Shown here in pieces: positions 20,343-27,180 of a stretch of DNA of 64,000 nt. Positions within the stretch are counted from its first letter, which is position 1. Every line of letters starts with the position of its first letter. The stretch lies in contig JABJEK010000038.1 of the NCBI GenBank assembly GCA_018702955.1, forward strand, positions 128,002-192,001. The letters run 5' to 3'. The translations under genes and the position numbers were made by a program. The notes under the pieces were generated by a model that saw only the letters and a program-made list of their open reading frames with translations, was not told where the DNA came from and searched no databases. The DNA comes from Rhodospirillaceae bacterium. Lineage in GTDB: Bacteria > Pseudomonadota > Alphaproteobacteria > UBA6615.

Positions 20343-20870
20343 TTACGCGGTACTATCGCGCCCCGGGTGAATGGCGCCACAGGCGCCGCAGGTGCGCAAT
20401 TCTTCCGAGTTGTAAAACCCTTCGAATAGTGGCGGCAGGTCTTTCACAATATTCCCCACATGCACCTCCACACGATGCAGCAGCGCATCGCAGGCACCGC
20501 AGAACCACTCGAAACCATCAAGTTCACTGTCCGGCCGACGCCGCTCGACGACGAGACCGACACTTCCTGTTTCGGGCCGTTGCGGAGAGTGACGTACATG
20601 TGGCGGCAACAAGAGAATATCGCCCTCATTGATCGGCACATCTCGCGGTCGGCCATTCTCCATGATCTTGAGGAACATATTGCCCTCGAGCTGATAGAAG
20701 AATTCTTCATAGGGATCGTCGTGAAAGTCTGTCCGGCGGTTCGGTCCACCAACCACCATCACGATGAAGTCGGTGTCCTGCCACACCACTGCATTCCCGA
20801 CCGGCGGCTTCAATATATCTCGATGCTCGTCGATCCAGGTCTGGAAATTAAAGGCCTTCAACTGGGACAT
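20343..20870 (-). CDS. nbaC: 3-hydroxyanthranilate 3,4-dioxygenase (HAAO/NbaC-type cupin)
   Basis: ATG at 20868-20870. [65 protein letters not shown] matches bacterial HAAO. The C-terminal CGAC...CGAC rubredoxin-like second metal site is present. Confidence 0.8.
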
Positions 20871-20877
20871 GACATGA

Positions 20878-21783
20878 TTACTCCGCTGCAACATCGAGCT
20901 GTCGGAAATCGTAACCCGTGTCTGCCGCAAACGCATCGATAAGCCGGGTCGTGATCGGTCCCGGAATATCCAACTTGGGTGCGAAACCATCGACCGACGA
21001 AACGGGCGTGGCACAGATCGCGCTTGAGGTAATGAAACATTCCTCCGCCTGAGCCACGTCGTACATGGTGAAGAGTTTCTCCTCGAGGGGAATATCCAAG
21101 CGTTCGCACAGCTCAAACAGGACTTTTCTCGTAACCCCTTCGAGAATATTCCGCTCGGGTGCGGTCCAGACCACGCCATCGCGCACGAGGAAGAAATTCG
21201 CCACGGAAGTCTCAGCGATGTTCCCGTCCAGATCGAGCATCAACGGCAAGGAATCCCGGCTCGCCGCGTCCAGTTCGGCAAGAATCTGGTTCATCTTGCT
21301 CGTCACCTTGGCGCGGGTCTCCACACATTCCGGTGGATTACGCCGTACGGACGATACCGTCAGCGTCACCCCTTCTGCATAATTGCGTGCGATCGCGGCC
21401 GTATCGACCGGGCGGAAGAAGATCATGACCGTTCCCGGACCCGCCGCATGCACCCGCATCGACGGCGTATCCTCGCCGCGCGTTATCCAGTGGCCGACCC
21501 GGTACATCGCATTCGCCCCAAGCCGGTCCGCGTTGGCAGCCAGCAGCTTTTCAGTGGCTTCCGTCATCTCCGCCGGTGTCAGGCCGGGGTCAATCCGCAC
21601 ATAGCGAAGCGAGCGATACAGGCGATCGATATGGTCTTCCAGGCGATATAATTCGTCACCAAAACAAGGTGTTACCTCATAGACACCGTCGCCCCAGAGG
21701 AACCCCCTGTCGAACGGAGATATCCGCGCATCTGCCGTTTCAACTATGTCGCCGTTGAGATAGATCAGTGGATCGCCGGTCAT
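20878..21783 (-). CDS. class IV (fold type IV) PLP aminotransferase: BCAT / D-amino-acid aminotransferase / aminodeoxychorismate-lyase family
   Basis: ATG at 21781-21783. 302 aa. GDGVYEV...RL..S...ITRG...[19 protein letters not shown] pattern. Stop lies 7 nt before the HAAO start. Confidence 0.8.
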
Positions 21784-21902
21784 CAGAACCTCTTTTTTTT
21801 CTGCCGCCCTCGGATAGTGCAGACCACGGAAGCACAATTCGCACTGCGACTCCATGGGTGACACCCCTATGGTGTCGCCAAGCAACCATCGAGGGAAAAC
21901 AA

Positions 21903-24584: not shown

Positions 24585-24644
24585 GTCTCCGCTCCCTTAT
24601 TCCGTTCCAGACTGGGAGAGCCTAACGGATAATCAGAGGGCCCT

Positions 24645-25544
24645 CTAGGCCGGGAAATAGAGGTCGAGCCAGCCCTTCACGGCATCGCGCGCGCGCGTGC
24701 TGTCCACGGAGAACGGGAAATGGTCCACGTCCGACGCAAGGATCAGGTCGCAGGGCTGTTTTGAATGGGCGAAGAGCTGCAATGACTGATCCGTTGGTGT
24801 GACGGAATCGTCGGCGGCGTGGAACAAGAGCACCGGGCGCGGAGAGATGTCCGCGATCACATCGTTCGCCCGGAAGTCATACATGCTCTGCGCCGTCTCG
24901 GCCGGGAACTCCATCAGCACATTCTTGCCCATATGGCCGCGCAGATGTTCGGGAATCGGGACGATATCCCATCGCCCAACCATGAGCGATTCCCCGGTCT
25001 TCTCGCGATGCGCCTTGCCCTCGGTCAGGATATTCTGGAAGTGGGCCCATTGCTCATCGGACGCATGCTGCAGGCGGAACTTGCTCTCGCCATCCCCCCA
25101 GCCGCAGGACGAAATCACCGCGGCGATCCGCTTATCAACACCACCTGCATACACAGCAACAGCAGCCCCGAAACTGTGGCCGATCACGCCAATACGGTCA
25201 CCATCCACATAGGGTTGCTCGGCGAACCACGTCACGGCGTTCTTCACATCCTCGACCTGGTCCTCGCACATCACCCATCCGGTCTCGCCTTCGCTGTCAC
25301 CGCAGCTGCGGAAATCAAACCGCATGACGACATAACCCCAGTCGCACAGCATGTTCGACAGGATCTCCGGTGTGGACCCGTCCTTACCGGTCCCGAAACC
25401 GTGCAAGACCAGAAATGCCGGCCGCGAATCTCCCGGCGCAAGGTCCGCAGGTGTGTGAACCACGCCCGCGAGCGTCAGCCCGTCGGATTTGAATGAGACG
25501 TTCTGTTCCAATTGACGTTCCCCTCTATGAATTCTCTGTTTCAT
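24645..25544 (-). CDS. alpha/beta hydrolase (dienelactone-hydrolase / peptidase-S9-like)
   Basis: ATG at 25542-25544. FLVLHGFGTGKDG...IGVIGHSFGAAVAV. Overlaps the upstream CoA-ligase stop. Confidence 0.75.
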   Translation of the reverse strand: MKQRIHRGERQLEQNVSFKSDGLTLAGVVHTPADLAPGDSRPAFLVLHGFGTGKDGSTPEILSNMLCDWGYVVMRFDFRSCGDSEGETGWVMCEDQVEDVKNAVTWFAEQPYVDGDRIGVIGHSFGAAVAVYAGGVDKRIAAVISSCGWGDGESKFRLQHASDEQWAHFQNILTEGKAHREKTGESLMVGRWDIVPIPEHLRGHMGKNVLMEFPAETAQSMYDFRANDVIADISPRPVLLFHAADDSVTPTDQSLQLFAHSKQPCDLILASDVDHFPFSVDSTRARDAVKGWLDLYFPA

Positions 25545-27180
25545 CCGCACGCAGGGCTTGCCGGTCTATCTTGCCGGTTCCCGTTTTTGGCAGATCACCG
25601 CGAAACTCAACGATGCGCGGATATTTATACGGGACAAGCTTGGTCTTCACATAGTCCTGCAGGCGTTGTGTTGTCGCATCGTCATGCCCGGCCGCCGCCT
25701 TCATCACGACCCAGGCCTTGGTTGTCATCAATCCGTTGTGCGCGGCCACGCCAAGCACGCAGCTTTCCTGCACATCGGGATGGTCGTTGAGACAACGCTC
25801 GATCTCCAGCGGATAAATCCATTGCCCGCTCACCTTGATCAGATCATCGGCTCGCCCGTCAAATTTGTAGAATCCATCCTCATCACACTGAAAACGATCG
25901 CCGGTGTAAATCCAGTCGTCACGCATCGTGTCGGCCGTCTTGTCGGGTTGATTCCAGTAGAACGGCGCCTGTGAATCCCCGCGAACCCACATGGTTCCCG
26001 GCTCACCAAGCGCGACCGGCTCGCCATCCATATCGACGAGTTTGATCTCGTAACCGGGAACACGTTTCCCCGCGGCGCCAGCACGGATGTCACCGGGAAA
26101 GTTGCTCACGTAAATATGCAAGACTTCCGTGGAGCCCAGGCCCTCGACGATTTCGAGACCGTAGCGTCGCCGCCACTCATTGAAGGTCTCTTCGGGAAGC
26201 GGTTCGGCGGCGGAGAGGCATAAACGCACACTCCCCAGATCGCGGTCCTCGCTGCCTTCGTACGCAACCAGCGCGTTGTAGAGCGTCGGCAATCCGAAGA
26301 ACACGGTCGGTTTATGTCGCTCGATTGCATCATAGATCGGCGCCGGTTCGGGCCGTCCCGCATTGAGGACGACCGCGGCGCCGGCCGAGAAGGGAAAGGT
26401 GATCGAATTTCCGAACCCGTAGGCGAAGAATATCTTGGGCACCGAGTAGATAATGTCATCTTCGGACAATTCTAGAACCGCCTGCCCGTAACTCAAATCC
26501 GTGTAGAGCATATCGTGCTGCAGGTGCACGATACCCTTGGGGCGGCCCGTGCTGCCGGAGCTGTACATCCAGAAAGCCATCTCGTCTCGATGGGTATCCG
26601 CCACATCCAGCGCCGCACCCTGGCCCCCGATAAACGCGTCCCACCCCTCTATTGGGATCGGGAAATCGGCTGACACTTCGCCATCCGCCTCGCCGTTTAC
26701 AACGATGACCCGATCAACCGCCGGACCGTCGGCCAGTGCTTCGTGCAGCGTGTCCAGCAAAGCCGCTTCACACATCACGATTGGCGCGGCGCTGTCCTCT
26801 ATGTAATAGCGGAGCAGATCGGGTGTTGAGAGGATATTGATCAACACCGGCACATAGCCCGCACGAACAGCGCCGAAGAAGGCGGCCGGATAGACGGGTG
26901 TATCGTCAAGCACCATCGCCACCCGATCGCCACGCCGAAGGCCGCAGTCGCGCAACGCATTTCCCGCCTGCCCGGCGAGATCACACAGATCCTGGTATGT
27001 GAGGCTTATGTCCGCAGCGAGTATCGCAGTACGGGCGCCACGGCCCGCATCGAGATTTCGAAACAAAATCTCGCTGGCATTGTAACGCTCGGGAACCGCA
27101 AAACCGATTTCCCGCGTGCCCGCTGTATCCGGCCCGACCGGATCGTCAATGCGCCGCTGGTGTTCGATATCCTGCGACAT
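25525..27180 (-). CDS. aryl-CoA ligase of the benzoate / 2-aminobenzoate-CoA ligase clade (AMP-dependent synthetase)
   Basis: 551 aa. ERYNASEILF, SSGSTGRPKG, YGxTE-like and GDRF...DG motifs. Confidence 0.85.
   Translation of the reverse strand: MSQDIEHQRRIDDPVGPDTAGTREIGFAVPERYNASEILFRNLDAGRGARTAILAADISLTYQDLCDLAGQAGNALRDCGLRRGDRVAMVLDDTPVYPAAFFGAVRAGYVPVLINILSTPDLLRYYIEDSAAPIVMCEAALLDTLHEALADGPAVDRVIVVNGEADGEVSADFPIPIEGWDAFIGGQGAALDVADTHRDEMAFWMYSSGSTGRPKGIVHLQHDMLYTDLSYGQAVLELSEDDIIYSVPKIFFAYGFGNSITFPFSAGAAVVLNAGRPEPAPIYDAIERHKPTVFFGLPTLYNALVAYEGSEDRDLGSVRLCLSAAEPLPEETFNEWRRRYGLEIVEGLGSTEVLHIYVSNFPGDIRAGAAGKRVPGYEIKLVDMDGEPVALGEPGTMWVRGDSQAPFYWNQPDKTADTMRDDWIYTGDRFQCDEDGFYKFDGRADDLIKVSGQWIYPLEIERCLNDHPDVQESCVLGVAAHNGLMTTKAWVVMKAAAGHDDATTQRLQDYVKTKLVPYKYPRIVEFRGDLPKTGTGKIDRQALRADETENS

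Follow-up and report, generated by a model that had tools for sequence, protein, structure and literature searches.

A modular, putatively catabolic gene island with a 3-hydroxyanthranilate dioxygenase and an aryl-CoA ligase in uncultured marine Alphaproteobacteria

Gene content of the locus

We analysed a window of 64,000 nt (the whole stretch of DNA under study) and found all eight genes of the original prediction between positions 20343 and 27180, with the predicted identities, coordinates and strands. Five of them form a minus-strand operon. It starts with Lig, a ligase of the benzoate-CoA ligase family (ANL; 25525-27180, 551 aa), followed by HydS, a Ser-Asp-His alpha/beta hydrolase (24645-25511, 288 aa; ORF extendable to 25550), a cupin (24012-24584, 190 aa), HydD, a RutD-like alpha/beta hydrolase (23186-23974, 262 aa), and RidA, a RutC-like Rid family deaminase (22778-23161, 127 aa). 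The successive spacers are 13, 60, 37, and 24 nt.

Also on the minus strand lies AT4, a class IV aminotransferase and fold-type IV PLP enzyme (20878-21783, 301 aa, or 325 aa from an alternative start at 21855), with HAAO, a 3-hydroxyanthranilate 3,4-dioxygenase (20343-20870, 175 aa), downstream of it; the spacer measured 7 nt, as predicted. The operons were defined by these short spacers between same-strand genes. The plus-strand EamA/DMT transporter (21903-22781, 292 aa) diverges from AT4, at a distance of 119 nt, and converges with RidA, which it overlaps by 4 nt.

The island is bordered by unrelated genes, on one side ccoNOQP-fixGHIS and a cytochrome c gene, on the other a PAS histidine kinase with a response regulator. 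The island genes are unremarkable in GC and GC3, thus recent transfer is not indicated. The usual partners of HAAO had been described as absent here, and TDO, KMO, kynureninase, ACMSD, and aminomuconate-semialdehyde dehydrogenase (AMSDH) are indeed all missing from the 64-kb window. No aryl-CoA-modifying enzyme (hydroxylase, reductase, or epoxidase) is encoded at the island.

Assignment of the individual genes

Judged from its sequence, HAAO is fully canonical, with every catalytic residue present. It scored 273 bits against NF009763 (cutoff 220), 257 bits against TIGR03037 (cutoff 146), and 261 bits against 1YFU, and residues H51, E57, H95, R47, R99, E110 and the four FeS4-site Cys are all conserved. 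The expectation that HAAO normally travels with kyn or ACMSD genes failed in three other alphaproteobacterial HAAO contexts, where neither partner set was present.

For Lig, the match to TIGR02262 reached 537.5 bits (cutoff 375), and that to the HbdA equivalog remained below its cutoff (413 vs. 1000). Its PDB matches include BadA (4eat, E = 3e-117) and the anthranilate-CoA ligase AuaEII (4wv3, E = 1e-111). The nearest cultured homologue, from Rhizobium sp. AB2/73, is 58% identical and has identical pocket motifs (FFAYGFGN and GSTEVLHIY). Since this relative adjoins a gene for a salicylyl-CoA 5-hydroxylase-like monooxygenase, in a cluster that also holds a gentisate-dioxygenase-like bicupin, FAH, and MaiA, an ortho-substituted benzoate is suggested as the substrate. 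A route for salicylate via CoA has been described (Zhou 2021, as cited in PMC11335346) and also appears in PMC13215587.

AT4 matched PF01063 (E = 5e-43), and BCATs of archaea and thermophiles were the closest PDB entries (E = 1e-40). The BCAT, DAAT, and ADCL models all scored far under their cutoffs (best, PRK08320, 191 vs. 363), and its orthologues do not conserve the DAAT RxH motif. From the profile, PDB, and motif comparisons, AT4 could not be placed among the BCAT, DAAT, ADCL, or R-amine transaminase enzymes. Relatives at 65-67% identity lie in an unrelated HyuA/HyuB context. EamA carries PF00892 twice and weakly matches TIGR00950 and YddG, an exporter of aromatic amino acids.

HydS matched the Pfam families Peptidase_S15, Abhydrolase_1/6, BAAT_C (weakly), and DLH, and its triad (S113, D235, H264) is invariant. 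Its PDB relatives are aryl-ester hydrolases, namely the MHETase-like 7qjm (E = 2e-34) and feruloyl, cinnamoyl, and chlorogenate esterases, and not meta-cleavage-product (MCP) C-C hydrolases. Homologues at 49-57% identity are found within operons of FAH, a VOC dioxygenase, a HydS-like hydrolase, and Ldh_2. In a sister set of 45 loci, at 49-66% identity, 20 of the 34 covered have a gene for an extradiol-type VOC dioxygenase immediately upstream, and 31/37 have Ldh_2 as a neighbour.

The remaining three genes of the operon (hereafter, the trio) point in part to the Rut pathway. The best PDB match of HydD is Escherichia coli RutD (3v48, E = 5e-36), with 203 bits against TIGR03611 RutD (under the cutoff of 238.5), 135 bits against PcaD, and 40-43% identity to hydrolases of plasmid-borne Rut-like LLM-monooxygenase clusters. 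RidA had been proposed as a 2-aminomuconate deaminase; it is RutC-like instead (TIGR03610, 172.5 bits, cutoff 169.1; RutC 3v4d, E = 5e-40 vs. 2-aminomuconate deaminase 6izh, E = 2e-11) and shares 64% identity with the Rid protein encoded in a Rut-like cluster of R. daejeonense. The proposal that the hydrolases are cofactor-less dioxygenases did not hold up either, as neither HydS nor HydD resembles those enzymes in the PDB comparison. The cupin belongs to an uncharacterised, highly conserved subfamily. It also occurs at 81-84% identity in a different operon (SMP-30 lactonase, CitE-like, UbiD-like, and XDH) and at ~60% in many unrelated contexts, so it possibly has a general function unrelated to the island.

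Conservation across related loci

We compared ~120 related loci of uncultured marine Alphaproteobacteria and scored the core and accessory genes over ~26 species-representative genome loci and ~35 metagenome contigs of one family, whose MAGs are labelled Rhodospirillaceae, MarineAlpha12, or UBA2966. Only HydS, EamA, and AT4 form an invariant unit, EamA being found in every locus that covers its position. Around them, three slots vary: (i) the position upstream of HydS is empty or holds either the aryl-CoA ligase or an MFS transporter; (ii) HydS and EamA may or may not be separated by the trio; and (iii) AT4 can be followed by HAAO, by an ACMSD-like decarboxylase encoded on the opposite strand, or by neither. 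The fillings were seen in all combinations, and the window holds the fullest version.

Lig was lost at least four times among close relatives, by parsimony on a HydS+AT4 tree, and is missing even from genomes with a 95-99% identical cupin. HAAO is restricted to part of clade A1, and several relatives lack it, including the close ones L017, L018, L116, L117, and L131. A whole subclade retains ligase and HAAO but has no trio (at least three species and ~10 contigs); the resulting minimal cluster Lig-HydS-EamA-AT4-HAAO is seen in L090, L091, L096, and L119-L127. Contig L131 has the ligase with neither HAAO nor trio. Sister clade A2 keeps the trio and lacks both ligase and HAAO; in the HAAO slot it carries the ACMSD-like gene (196 bits to ACMSD vs. 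90 for LigW).

In the gene-neighbourhood comparison suggested by the original prediction, HydS, EamA, and AT4 are constant, whereas the ligase is repeatedly lost and HAAO and the trio are variable, so that one coupled route is not supported. HAAO is present in 13 of the 14 ligase-positive loci where slot (iii) is covered. Within the family, synteny extends over more than 20 kb around the cluster and takes in cbb3 oxidase maturation genes, the PAS kinase, and a Mo-oxidoreductase. The synteny of the flanks (Mo-oxidoreductase, SDR, Ldh_2, fixGHIS) indicates vertical descent and, within one lineage, makes adjacency weak evidence for coupling of the two operons.

Interpretation of the island

We tentatively read the region as a vertically inherited, modular catabolic island; this reading and the mechanism below, taken together, are possible rather than probable. 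An aromatic, N-containing substrate theme is supported by the gene contexts of the nearest cultured homologues, which are salicylyl-CoA-hydroxylase and gentisate-type for the ligase, FAH-dioxygenase-Ldh_2 for HydS, and Rut-like for HydD and RidA. The suggested aromatic acid with an amino or hydroxy substituent survives in this form, with the canonical HAAO, the ortho-benzoate-type ligase relative, and the ACMSD-like gene in the sister-clade HAAO slot. Because ligase, HAAO, and trio vary between close relatives, we regard the island as an interesting uncharacterised lead rather than an established new pathway.

In the proposed mechanism, offered with the same reserve, HydS would act as an aryl-ester/amide-type hydrolase that splits an aromatic acyl-amino-acid conjugate, and EamA or the MFS transporter would take up the conjugate or exchange its product. 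AT4 could convert the freed amino acid to its 2-oxo acid, a place that, for a 2-hydroxy acid, the Ldh_2 dehydrogenase may take in the sister HydS family. The aromatic half would be handled by whichever accessory module a lineage retains: Lig could thioesterify a salicylate- or anthranilate-type benzoate with an ortho substituent, HAAO could cleave the ring of 3-hydroxyanthranilate, and the ACMSD-like enzyme may be the sister-clade alternative. The trio might work as a Rut-like set, from oxygenase to hydrolase to enamine/imine deaminase, with release of ammonia. HydS could equally be a thioesterase, in line with the weak BAAT_C match, or a ring-fission-product hydrolase, in line with its dioxygenase neighbours.

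It is likewise possible, and no firmer a proposal, that there is no common pathway and that three independent units (Lig-HydS-cupin-HydD-RidA, EamA, and AT4-HAAO) are joined by family synteny only, HAAO serving quinolinate formation for NAD or 3-hydroxyanthranilate scavenging and the ligase operon acting on an unrelated substrate. The synteny includes obviously unrelated genes, the accessory genes can be lost independently of one another, and HAAO is canonical, is found in other Alphaproteobacteria with neither kyn nor ACMSD genes as partners, and was near none of ~55 more distant cupin loci. However, the same-strand AT4-HAAO spacing of 7-22 nt is maintained over 72-90% protein identity, and HAAO and the ACMSD-like gene, which are consecutive enzymes of one pathway, share a slot in sister clades. 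HAAO is nearly constant in ligase-positive loci, and the loss of an essential NAD-synthesis gene would be unexpected, yet five close relatives are without HAAO.

The original prediction coupled all eight genes in one linear route for an anthranilate or 3-hydroxyanthranilate derivative via an aryl-CoA thioester, with HAAO cleaving the ring, hydrolases and cupin processing the products, and RidA as an aminomuconate-type deaminase. The ligase family, the CoA-mediated ortho-hydroxybenzoate pathway of its closest cultured relative, the almost constant company of HAAO, and the sister-clade ACMSD-like gene all agree with it. We nevertheless consider it unlikely and find no support for one obligate pathway from HAAO to CoA ligase: ligase, HAAO, and trio are each missing from some relatives (ligase losses, the trio-less subclade, L131, clade A2), the HAAO substrate is a free acid with no aryl-CoA-modifying enzyme encoded, and RidA is RutC-like.

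A bypass of kynureninase would account for every gene of the minimal cluster: EamA would import a kynurenine-type amino acid, AT4 would form the 2,4-dioxo acid, and C-C cleavage by HydS would yield pyruvate and anthranilate or 3-hydroxyanthranilate for the ligase (anthraniloyl-CoA) or HAAO. The weak resemblance of EamA to YddG and the sister-family HydS-like genes next to FAH-family acylpyruvate hydrolase-type genes and dioxygenases are compatible with it. However, once kynurenine is transaminated, the product rapidly cyclises to kynurenate, KMO and TDO were not found nearby, the solved HydS relatives are esterases rather than C-C hydrolases, and HydS, EamA, and AT4 are retained where ligase and HAAO are both missing, which makes this bypass very improbable.

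A small biosynthetic cluster, with Lig activating an aromatic acid, HydS as a BAAT-like acyltransferase onto an AT4-made amine or amino acid, and EamA exporting the product, can draw on the weak BAAT_C match and the GrgF (PDB) match of HydS and on the exporter role common for EamA-family proteins, but it is hardly credible with a Ser nucleophile in a normal hydrolase triad, a ligase that is often absent, and partners of catabolic types (HAAO, ACMSD-like, RutC/RutD-like).

Comparison with known systems

The modular island shares with the 3-hydroxyanthranilate meta-cleavage systems (nba for 2-nitrobenzoate, amn for 2-aminophenol, and the lower kynurenine pathway HAAO-ACMSD-AMSDH-2-aminomuconate deaminase) a canonical HAAO, a nearby Rid-family deaminase, and the sister-clade ACMSD-like gene. 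Unlike them, the window lacks ACMSD, AMSDH, 4-oxalocrotonate decarboxylase, hydratase, and aldolase, and the island has a RutC-like Rid protein and additionally AT4, two serine hydrolases, a cupin, and a CoA ligase.

In line with the Rut pyrimidine pathway (RutA-F), a RutD-like hydrolase adjoins a RutC-like deaminase that is just above the RutC cutoff, and RidA is close to a Rid protein of the Rut-like LLM-monooxygenase clusters (Rhizobium, Pantoea, and Paracoccaceae plasmids). Unlike in Rut, the island has no RutA-type LLM oxygenase, RutB, flavin reductase, or RutE/AKR, a cupin takes the oxygenase position, and HydD is under the RutD cutoff.

The CoA-mediated salicylate-to-gentisate route (Streptomyces sdg; Rhizobium sp. 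X9, as attributed to Zhou et al. 2021) is approached through the Rhizobium cluster's ligase; in contrast, acyl-CoA hydroxylase, gentisate dioxygenase, FAH, and maleylpyruvate isomerase are absent from the window. The 2-aminobenzoyl-CoA (Azoarcus evansii) and box benzoyl-CoA pathways use an aryl-CoA ligase of the same family, but no 2-aminobenzoyl-CoA monooxygenase/reductase or BoxABC is near the island.

Finally, the operon of FAH, a VOC extradiol dioxygenase, an alpha/beta hydrolase, and Ldh_2, uncharacterised and found on Rhizobium plasmids and in many metagenomes, contains the closest outgroup of HydS, with the same triad. There, as in the island, the hydrolase is paired with a ring-cleaving dioxygenase and an enzyme acting at the acid C2; in the island, HAAO and/or the cupin would be the dioxygenase, and an aminotransferase takes the place of the Ldh_2 dehydrogenase as the C2 enzyme.

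Gene organization and surroundings

The eight genes that the original prediction had placed in the cluster (20343-27180) were all confirmed at their coordinates by an ORF listing and profile searches, and they form two operons delimited by short spacers around a transporter gene. The first, on the minus strand, opens with a ligase of the benzoate-CoA ligase family (Lig, 25525-27180) and continues with a serine alpha/beta hydrolase (HydS, 24645-25511), a cupin (24012-24584), a RutD-like hydrolase (HydD, 23186-23974), and RidA (22778-23161), with gaps of 13, 60, 37, and 24 nt in this order. 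The second, also on the minus strand, consists of a class IV aminotransferase (AT4, 20878-21783) and, directly 3' of it after 7 nt, 3-hydroxyanthranilate 3,4-dioxygenase (HAAO, 20343-20870). The DMT transporter gene (EamA, 21903-22781, plus strand) is convergent with RidA (4-nt overlap) and divergent from AT4 (119 nt). Base composition of the island genes was ordinary, and a promoter and terminator scan gave no signal above chance. The island proteins have also been deposited from several MAGs named 'Rhodospirillaceae bacterium', under generic PGAP names.

Both flanks are unrelated to the island. One holds ccoNOQP-fixGHIS, a cytochrome c, and a small Transgly_assoc membrane protein; the other, a response regulator, a PAS histidine kinase, a DMSO-reductase-family Mo enzyme, an SDR, and an Ldh_2 dehydrogenase. 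The ccoNOQP-fixGHIS cluster is complete and lies directly upstream of the ligase operon (28256-35850). Some relatives present an MBL-fold hydrolase, an unknown 310-aa protein, and a HIBADH-like dehydrogenase in its place, and thus the island borders a rearrangement point. TDO, KMO, kynureninase, ACMSD, and aminomuconate-semialdehyde dehydrogenase were not found across the whole 64-kb window, and kynA, kynB, KMO, and kynU were absent both from it and from the 10 kb on either side of the related loci.

Just past the cbb3 oxidase operon, a two-domain VOC protein with a long N-terminal extension (36001-37329, minus strand) resembles HpaD and catechol 2,3-dioxygenase at 92 bits, well under the cutoff. 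A set that looks catabolic and is syntenic in relatives (6121-12404) includes a muconate-cycloisomerase-family enzyme, a 3-hydroxyacyl-CoA dehydrogenase, an enoyl-CoA hydratase, a family III CoA-transferase, a second RutD-like hydrolase, and a Gfo/Idh/MocA oxidoreductase, and is followed by Ldh_2 (12401-13486) and an SDR (13574-14365). Alpha/beta-hydrolase and esterase genes (FrsA-like, Abhydrolase_3, S9/S15-like) are unusually dense, at 43242-45740, 57927-58757, 59998-61251, and 62493-63419.

A constant core with interchangeable accessories

We compared related loci from three independent samplings: the cupin in species-representative genomes (80 loci), HAAO and AT4 homologues, and HydS in metagenomes (80 loci), calling genes in the relatives by tblastn and by conservation. 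Synteny extends over the whole region in a single family of uncultured marine Alphaproteobacteria, where only HydS, EamA, and AT4 are constant. A neighbor-joining tree of HydS and AT4 splits this family into two clades, A1, to which the window belongs, and A2.

Within A1, the full arrangement of Lig, HydS, the trio of cupin, HydD, and RidA, EamA, AT4, and HAAO is found in the window and four other loci (L012, L023, L114, L118). Six loci differ from it only by lacking the ligase (L010, L011, L013, L016, L112, L121), including some with cupins 95-99% identical to that of the window, and four lack both the ligase and HAAO (L017, L018, L116, L117). A subclade (L090, L091, L096, L119-L127), together with locus L146, whose HydS is 95% identical, keeps Lig, HydS, EamA, AT4, and HAAO without the trio. 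Finally, locus L131 has neither HAAO nor the trio and consists of Lig, HydS, EamA, and AT4. In A2, the trio is always present, HAAO is absent, an MFS transporter occupies the ligase position, and an Amidohydro_2 gene convergent with AT4 is usually present.

The ligase was, by parsimony, ancestral to A1 and lost at least four times. The island is conserved by descent, with HydS, EamA, and AT4 as its constant unit, and the ligase, the HAAO or ACMSD-like gene, and the cupin trio are interchangeable accessories. An obligate co-occurrence of HAAO, AT4, and the CoA-ligase operon, the check that the original prediction had called for, was not supported: ligase, HAAO, and trio are variably present around the core. 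A rule that the ligase implies HAAO was also dropped: it fitted 13 of 14 loci (all except L131), and these loci are not phylogenetically independent.

HAAO and the position after AT4

HAAO passed both equivalog cutoffs (NF009763, 273.4 vs. 220; TIGR03037, 257.5 vs. 145.95). Aligned to 1yfu_A (261 bits, 1YFU numbering), it keeps the Fe ligands His51, Glu57, and His95, the substrate residues Arg47, Arg99, and Glu110, and the Cys4 rubredoxin-like second metal site. Judged on its sequence, it is a canonical 3-hydroxyanthranilate 3,4-dioxygenase.

Of its protein family, the Amidohydro_2 protein of A2 matches ACMSD by far the best, at 196 bits (human, 2wm1) and 147-150 bits (P. fluorescens) vs. 90 for LigW; metal and catalytic residues are kept, and two substrate-contact positions are not obviously conserved. 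This ACMSD-like gene occurs only in A2, the clade without HAAO. HAAO and ACMSD catalyze consecutive steps of one pathway. Since their genes occupy the same slot in sister clades, the position next to AT4 seems tied to chemistry of the 3-hydroxyanthranilate (3-HAA) type rather than random. This is the best evidence for such a link, yet neither gene is universal.

HAAO had been expected to stand with kynurenine-pathway or ACMSD partners. Outside the family, alphaproteobacterial relatives at ~70% identity lack kyn and ACMSD neighbors and stand beside either an LLM monooxygenase and flavin reductase or an Acyl-CoA_dh_2-type oxygenase, so that finding HAAO without these partners is nothing exceptional in Alphaproteobacteria. 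It is the AT4-HAAO pairing that is specific to A1. In two of these outside loci (L092, L107), HAAO (~71% identity) directly follows a MarR regulator, the LLM monooxygenase, and the flavin reductase, and in a third (L106) it adjoins the Acyl-CoA_dh_2-type oxygenase. Such oxygenases may act as two-component hydroxylases that supply 3-HAA.

The CoA ligase

Lig scored 537.5 against TIGR02262 (cutoff 375.25) and presents both ANL domains (PF00501 and PF13193). The 3-hydroxybenzoate equivalog HbdA was not reached (413, cutoff 1000), and BadA and the anthranilate-CoA ligase AuaEII are about equally close to Lig (AuaEII, E = 1e-111). In the plasmid collection, a ligase of Rhizobium sp. AB2/73 is 58% identical and has identical pocket-lining motifs. 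Its neighbors are an FAD monooxygenase (best match, the salicylyl-CoA 5-hydroxylase model), a gentisate-dioxygenase-like bicupin, FAH, MaiA, and IclR. According to published accounts, the CoA-mediated route from salicylate to gentisate has the same layout (PMC11335346, PMC13215587). The layout of the AB2/73 cluster thus favors an ortho-substituted benzoate as the probable substrate of Lig.

Cupin, HydD, and RidA

RidA lies just over the RutC equivalog cutoff (172.5 vs. 169.1), and is far closer to RutC (E = 5e-40) than to the Rid-family 2-aminomuconate deaminase 6izh (E = 2e-11). HydD did not reach the RutD cutoff (203.1 vs. 238.5), and its RutD-like label is soft because another, unrelated hydrolase in the window also has RutD as top match. 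The Lig operon contains no RutA monooxygenase, RutB amidohydrolase, or RutF flavin reductase, and the two LLM genes found outside it in the window gave no match to RutA. In the plasmid collection, RidA (54-64%) and HydD (39-43%) homologues sit together in Rut-like clusters with LysR, a hydrolase, an LLM monooxygenase, a Rid protein, a BMP-type ABC transporter, an AKR, and a flavin reductase.

Rut-like variants without RutB, carrying one or two Rid proteins and a RutD-like hydrolase besides LysR, the LLM monooxygenase, a BMP-family ABC transporter, an aldo/keto reductase, and a flavin reductase, are found in Pantoea sp. SOD02 (L108), Paracoccaceae La 6 (L109), and Rhizobium daejeonense (L110). 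Two of them adjoin TenA and formylaminopyrimidine-deformylase-type genes, a hint of thiamine-type pyrimidine degradation. RidA and the DMT transporter were discarded as a conserved pair: the R. daejeonense transporter beside a 64%-identical Rid protein is homologous to EamA at family level only.

Neither sequence nor fold searches turned up an informative relative of the cupin, and the plasmid collection contained no close relative from cultured bacteria. The protein keeps H88, H90, and E95, and an Arg replaces the usual motif-2 metal-binding His. This residue (R132) is invariant in a family of 58-65% identity and ~70 invariant residues that spans Alphaproteobacteria, Betaproteobacteria/Burkholderiales, and one Myxococcota MAG (L036-L089). 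The cupin stands with RidA alone in locus L019 and in the betaproteobacterial locus L044. In three loci (L020-L022), an 81-84%-identical cupin belongs to another operon, between a SMP-30/gluconolactonase-like gene and an HpcH/CitE-like lyase, followed by DUF427, a UbiD-like decarboxylase, an XDH-family Mo subunit, and an SDR, an order of genes reminiscent of pathways for heteroaromatic acids such as furoate/HMF.

At ~60% identity, cupin contexts are highly varied (TRAP transporters, XDH-type Mo enzymes, LigB-type dioxygenases, an MBL-fold protein), and tandem paralogues occur in L069 and L075. One metagenome scaffold (ENA ERZ23497628 scaffold_164; L001, L002) repeats HydS-cupin-HydD-RidA and half of EamA four times in alternating orientation, apparently a palindromic mis-assembly rather than a biological feature.

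HydS and AT4

HydS is a Ser-Asp-His hydrolase with a normal GxSxG motif. Among proteins of known structure, it is related to aryl-ester hydrolases (feruloyl, cinnamoyl, and chlorogenate esterases, an MHETase-like enzyme, and the CocE/NonD family) and not to meta-cleavage C-C hydrolases. The suggestion that the hydrolases could be cofactor-less dioxygenases loses its footing here: HOD and QDO are absent from the solved relatives of HydS and HydD, and both keep GxSxG. In the plasmid collection, a Rhizobium gene 52-54% identical to HydS lies in an operon of FAH (HpaG-like), VOC (C23O/HpaD-like), hydrolase, and Ldh_2. Among 45 sister loci from soil and sea, the gene directly upstream encodes a VOC dioxygenase in 20 of the 34 covered, and 31 of 37 have Ldh_2 next to the hydrolase.

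This operon of FAH (HpaG-like), VOC extradiol dioxygenase, HydS-like hydrolase, and Ldh_2 (L157-L190, L099, L100) is widespread and apparently uncharacterized; it occurs on many soil and marine metagenome contigs and on Rhizobium plasmids, there with a P450 system, a cupin, and an ADH nearby. A constant association of HydS with a dioxygenase was rejected on L131, which has ligase, HydS, EamA, and AT4, and neither HAAO nor cupin.

AT4 is a fold-type IV PLP enzyme for which the BCAT, DAAT, and ADC-lyase models all scored far under their cutoffs. An alignment with E. coli IlvE and Bacillus DAAT, which counts as a lead only, suggested a DAAT-like RxH motif in the window protein; assignment by this motif was dropped, as orthologues do not conserve it. 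Relatives of AT4 at 65-67% identity stand behind HyuA/HyuB, without HAAO or HydS. The closest outgroup (L093, L094, L097, L098) ends a string of Aminotran_1_2, 2-hydroxyacid dehydrogenase, HyuA, HyuB, AT4, and GreA, with a NicX-like gene at a distance of a few kb.

What the island may do

The esterase-type relatives of HydS, together with the sister-family hydrolase that accompanies a ring-cleaving dioxygenase and a 2-hydroxy-acid dehydrogenase, suggest that the island may split conjugates. HydS would cleave a conjugate with an aromatic acyl group, and the amino or hydroxy acid half would be oxidized to a 2-oxo acid by AT4 or, in the sister family, by Ldh_2. Lineages would differ in what takes up the aromatic half: the ligase, HAAO, or the cupin/RutD-like/RutC-like set. 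We infer this by analogy as the most economical model and hold it tentatively. Equal weight goes to the possibility that the operons are functionally unrelated neighbors and that HAAO serves quinolinate synthesis.

A single linear CoA route, as in the original prediction, appears quite unlikely. The aromatic amino- or hydroxy-acid theme was retained, but an obligate coupling of HAAO to the CoA-ligase operon disagrees with the loss patterns of ligase, HAAO, and trio, and no aryl-CoA-modifying enzyme is encoded. A bypass of kynureninase through AT4 and HydS is attractive for the minimal five-gene version and nonetheless very improbable, given the esterase affinities of HydS and the known cyclization of the kynurenine transamination product.

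Beyond conjugate splitting, a more ambitious reading is unlikely: undescribed ortho-amino/hydroxy aromatic acid chemistry in abundant uncultured ocean Alphaproteobacteria, with a flavin-independent Rut-type ring-opening module within a new catabolic route. A 2-His-1-Glu cupin, with the invariant Arg at the third-His position, would replace the RutA oxygenase and be coupled to the RutD-like hydrolase and the RutC-like deaminase. Its partners would be HAAO or the ACMSD-like enzyme, the esterase-type hydrolase, the class IV aminotransferase, and a salicylate/anthranilate-type CoA ligase, possibly with kynureninase-independent release of 3-HAA or anthranilate.

If the modules cooperate, they would show how a widespread group of uncultured marine heterotrophs clears dissolved organic matter of N-containing aromatic acids or conjugates of these. 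They would also give a first functional handle on a cupin family (~60% identity across Alpha- and Betaproteobacteria and Myxococcota) without a characterized relative, on an unassigned branch of class IV PLP enzymes, and on an esterase family that consistently accompanies ring-cleaving dioxygenases. Already now, gain and loss slot by slot amounts to a clean natural experiment on which genes depend on one another and yields a short list of enzymes worth expressing.

Comparison with known systems

In the searchable literature we found no description of this gene arrangement (RutC/RutD/cupin; HAAO with ligase and RidA). The nba/amn clusters for meta-cleavage of 3-HAA or aminophenol carry ACMSD and 2-aminomuconate-semialdehyde dehydrogenase by HAAO, whereas the window has neither. 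The CoA-mediated salicylate/gentisate pathway uses salicylyl-CoA 5-hydroxylase and gentisate 1,2-dioxygenase, which are absent from the window and the related loci. Compared with the Rut pathway, the island has a RidA just over the RutC cutoff and a HydD under the RutD cutoff, and RutA, RutB, and RutF are missing from its operon. The arrangement is best classed as a variant on known aromatic ring-cleavage and Rut-type systems.
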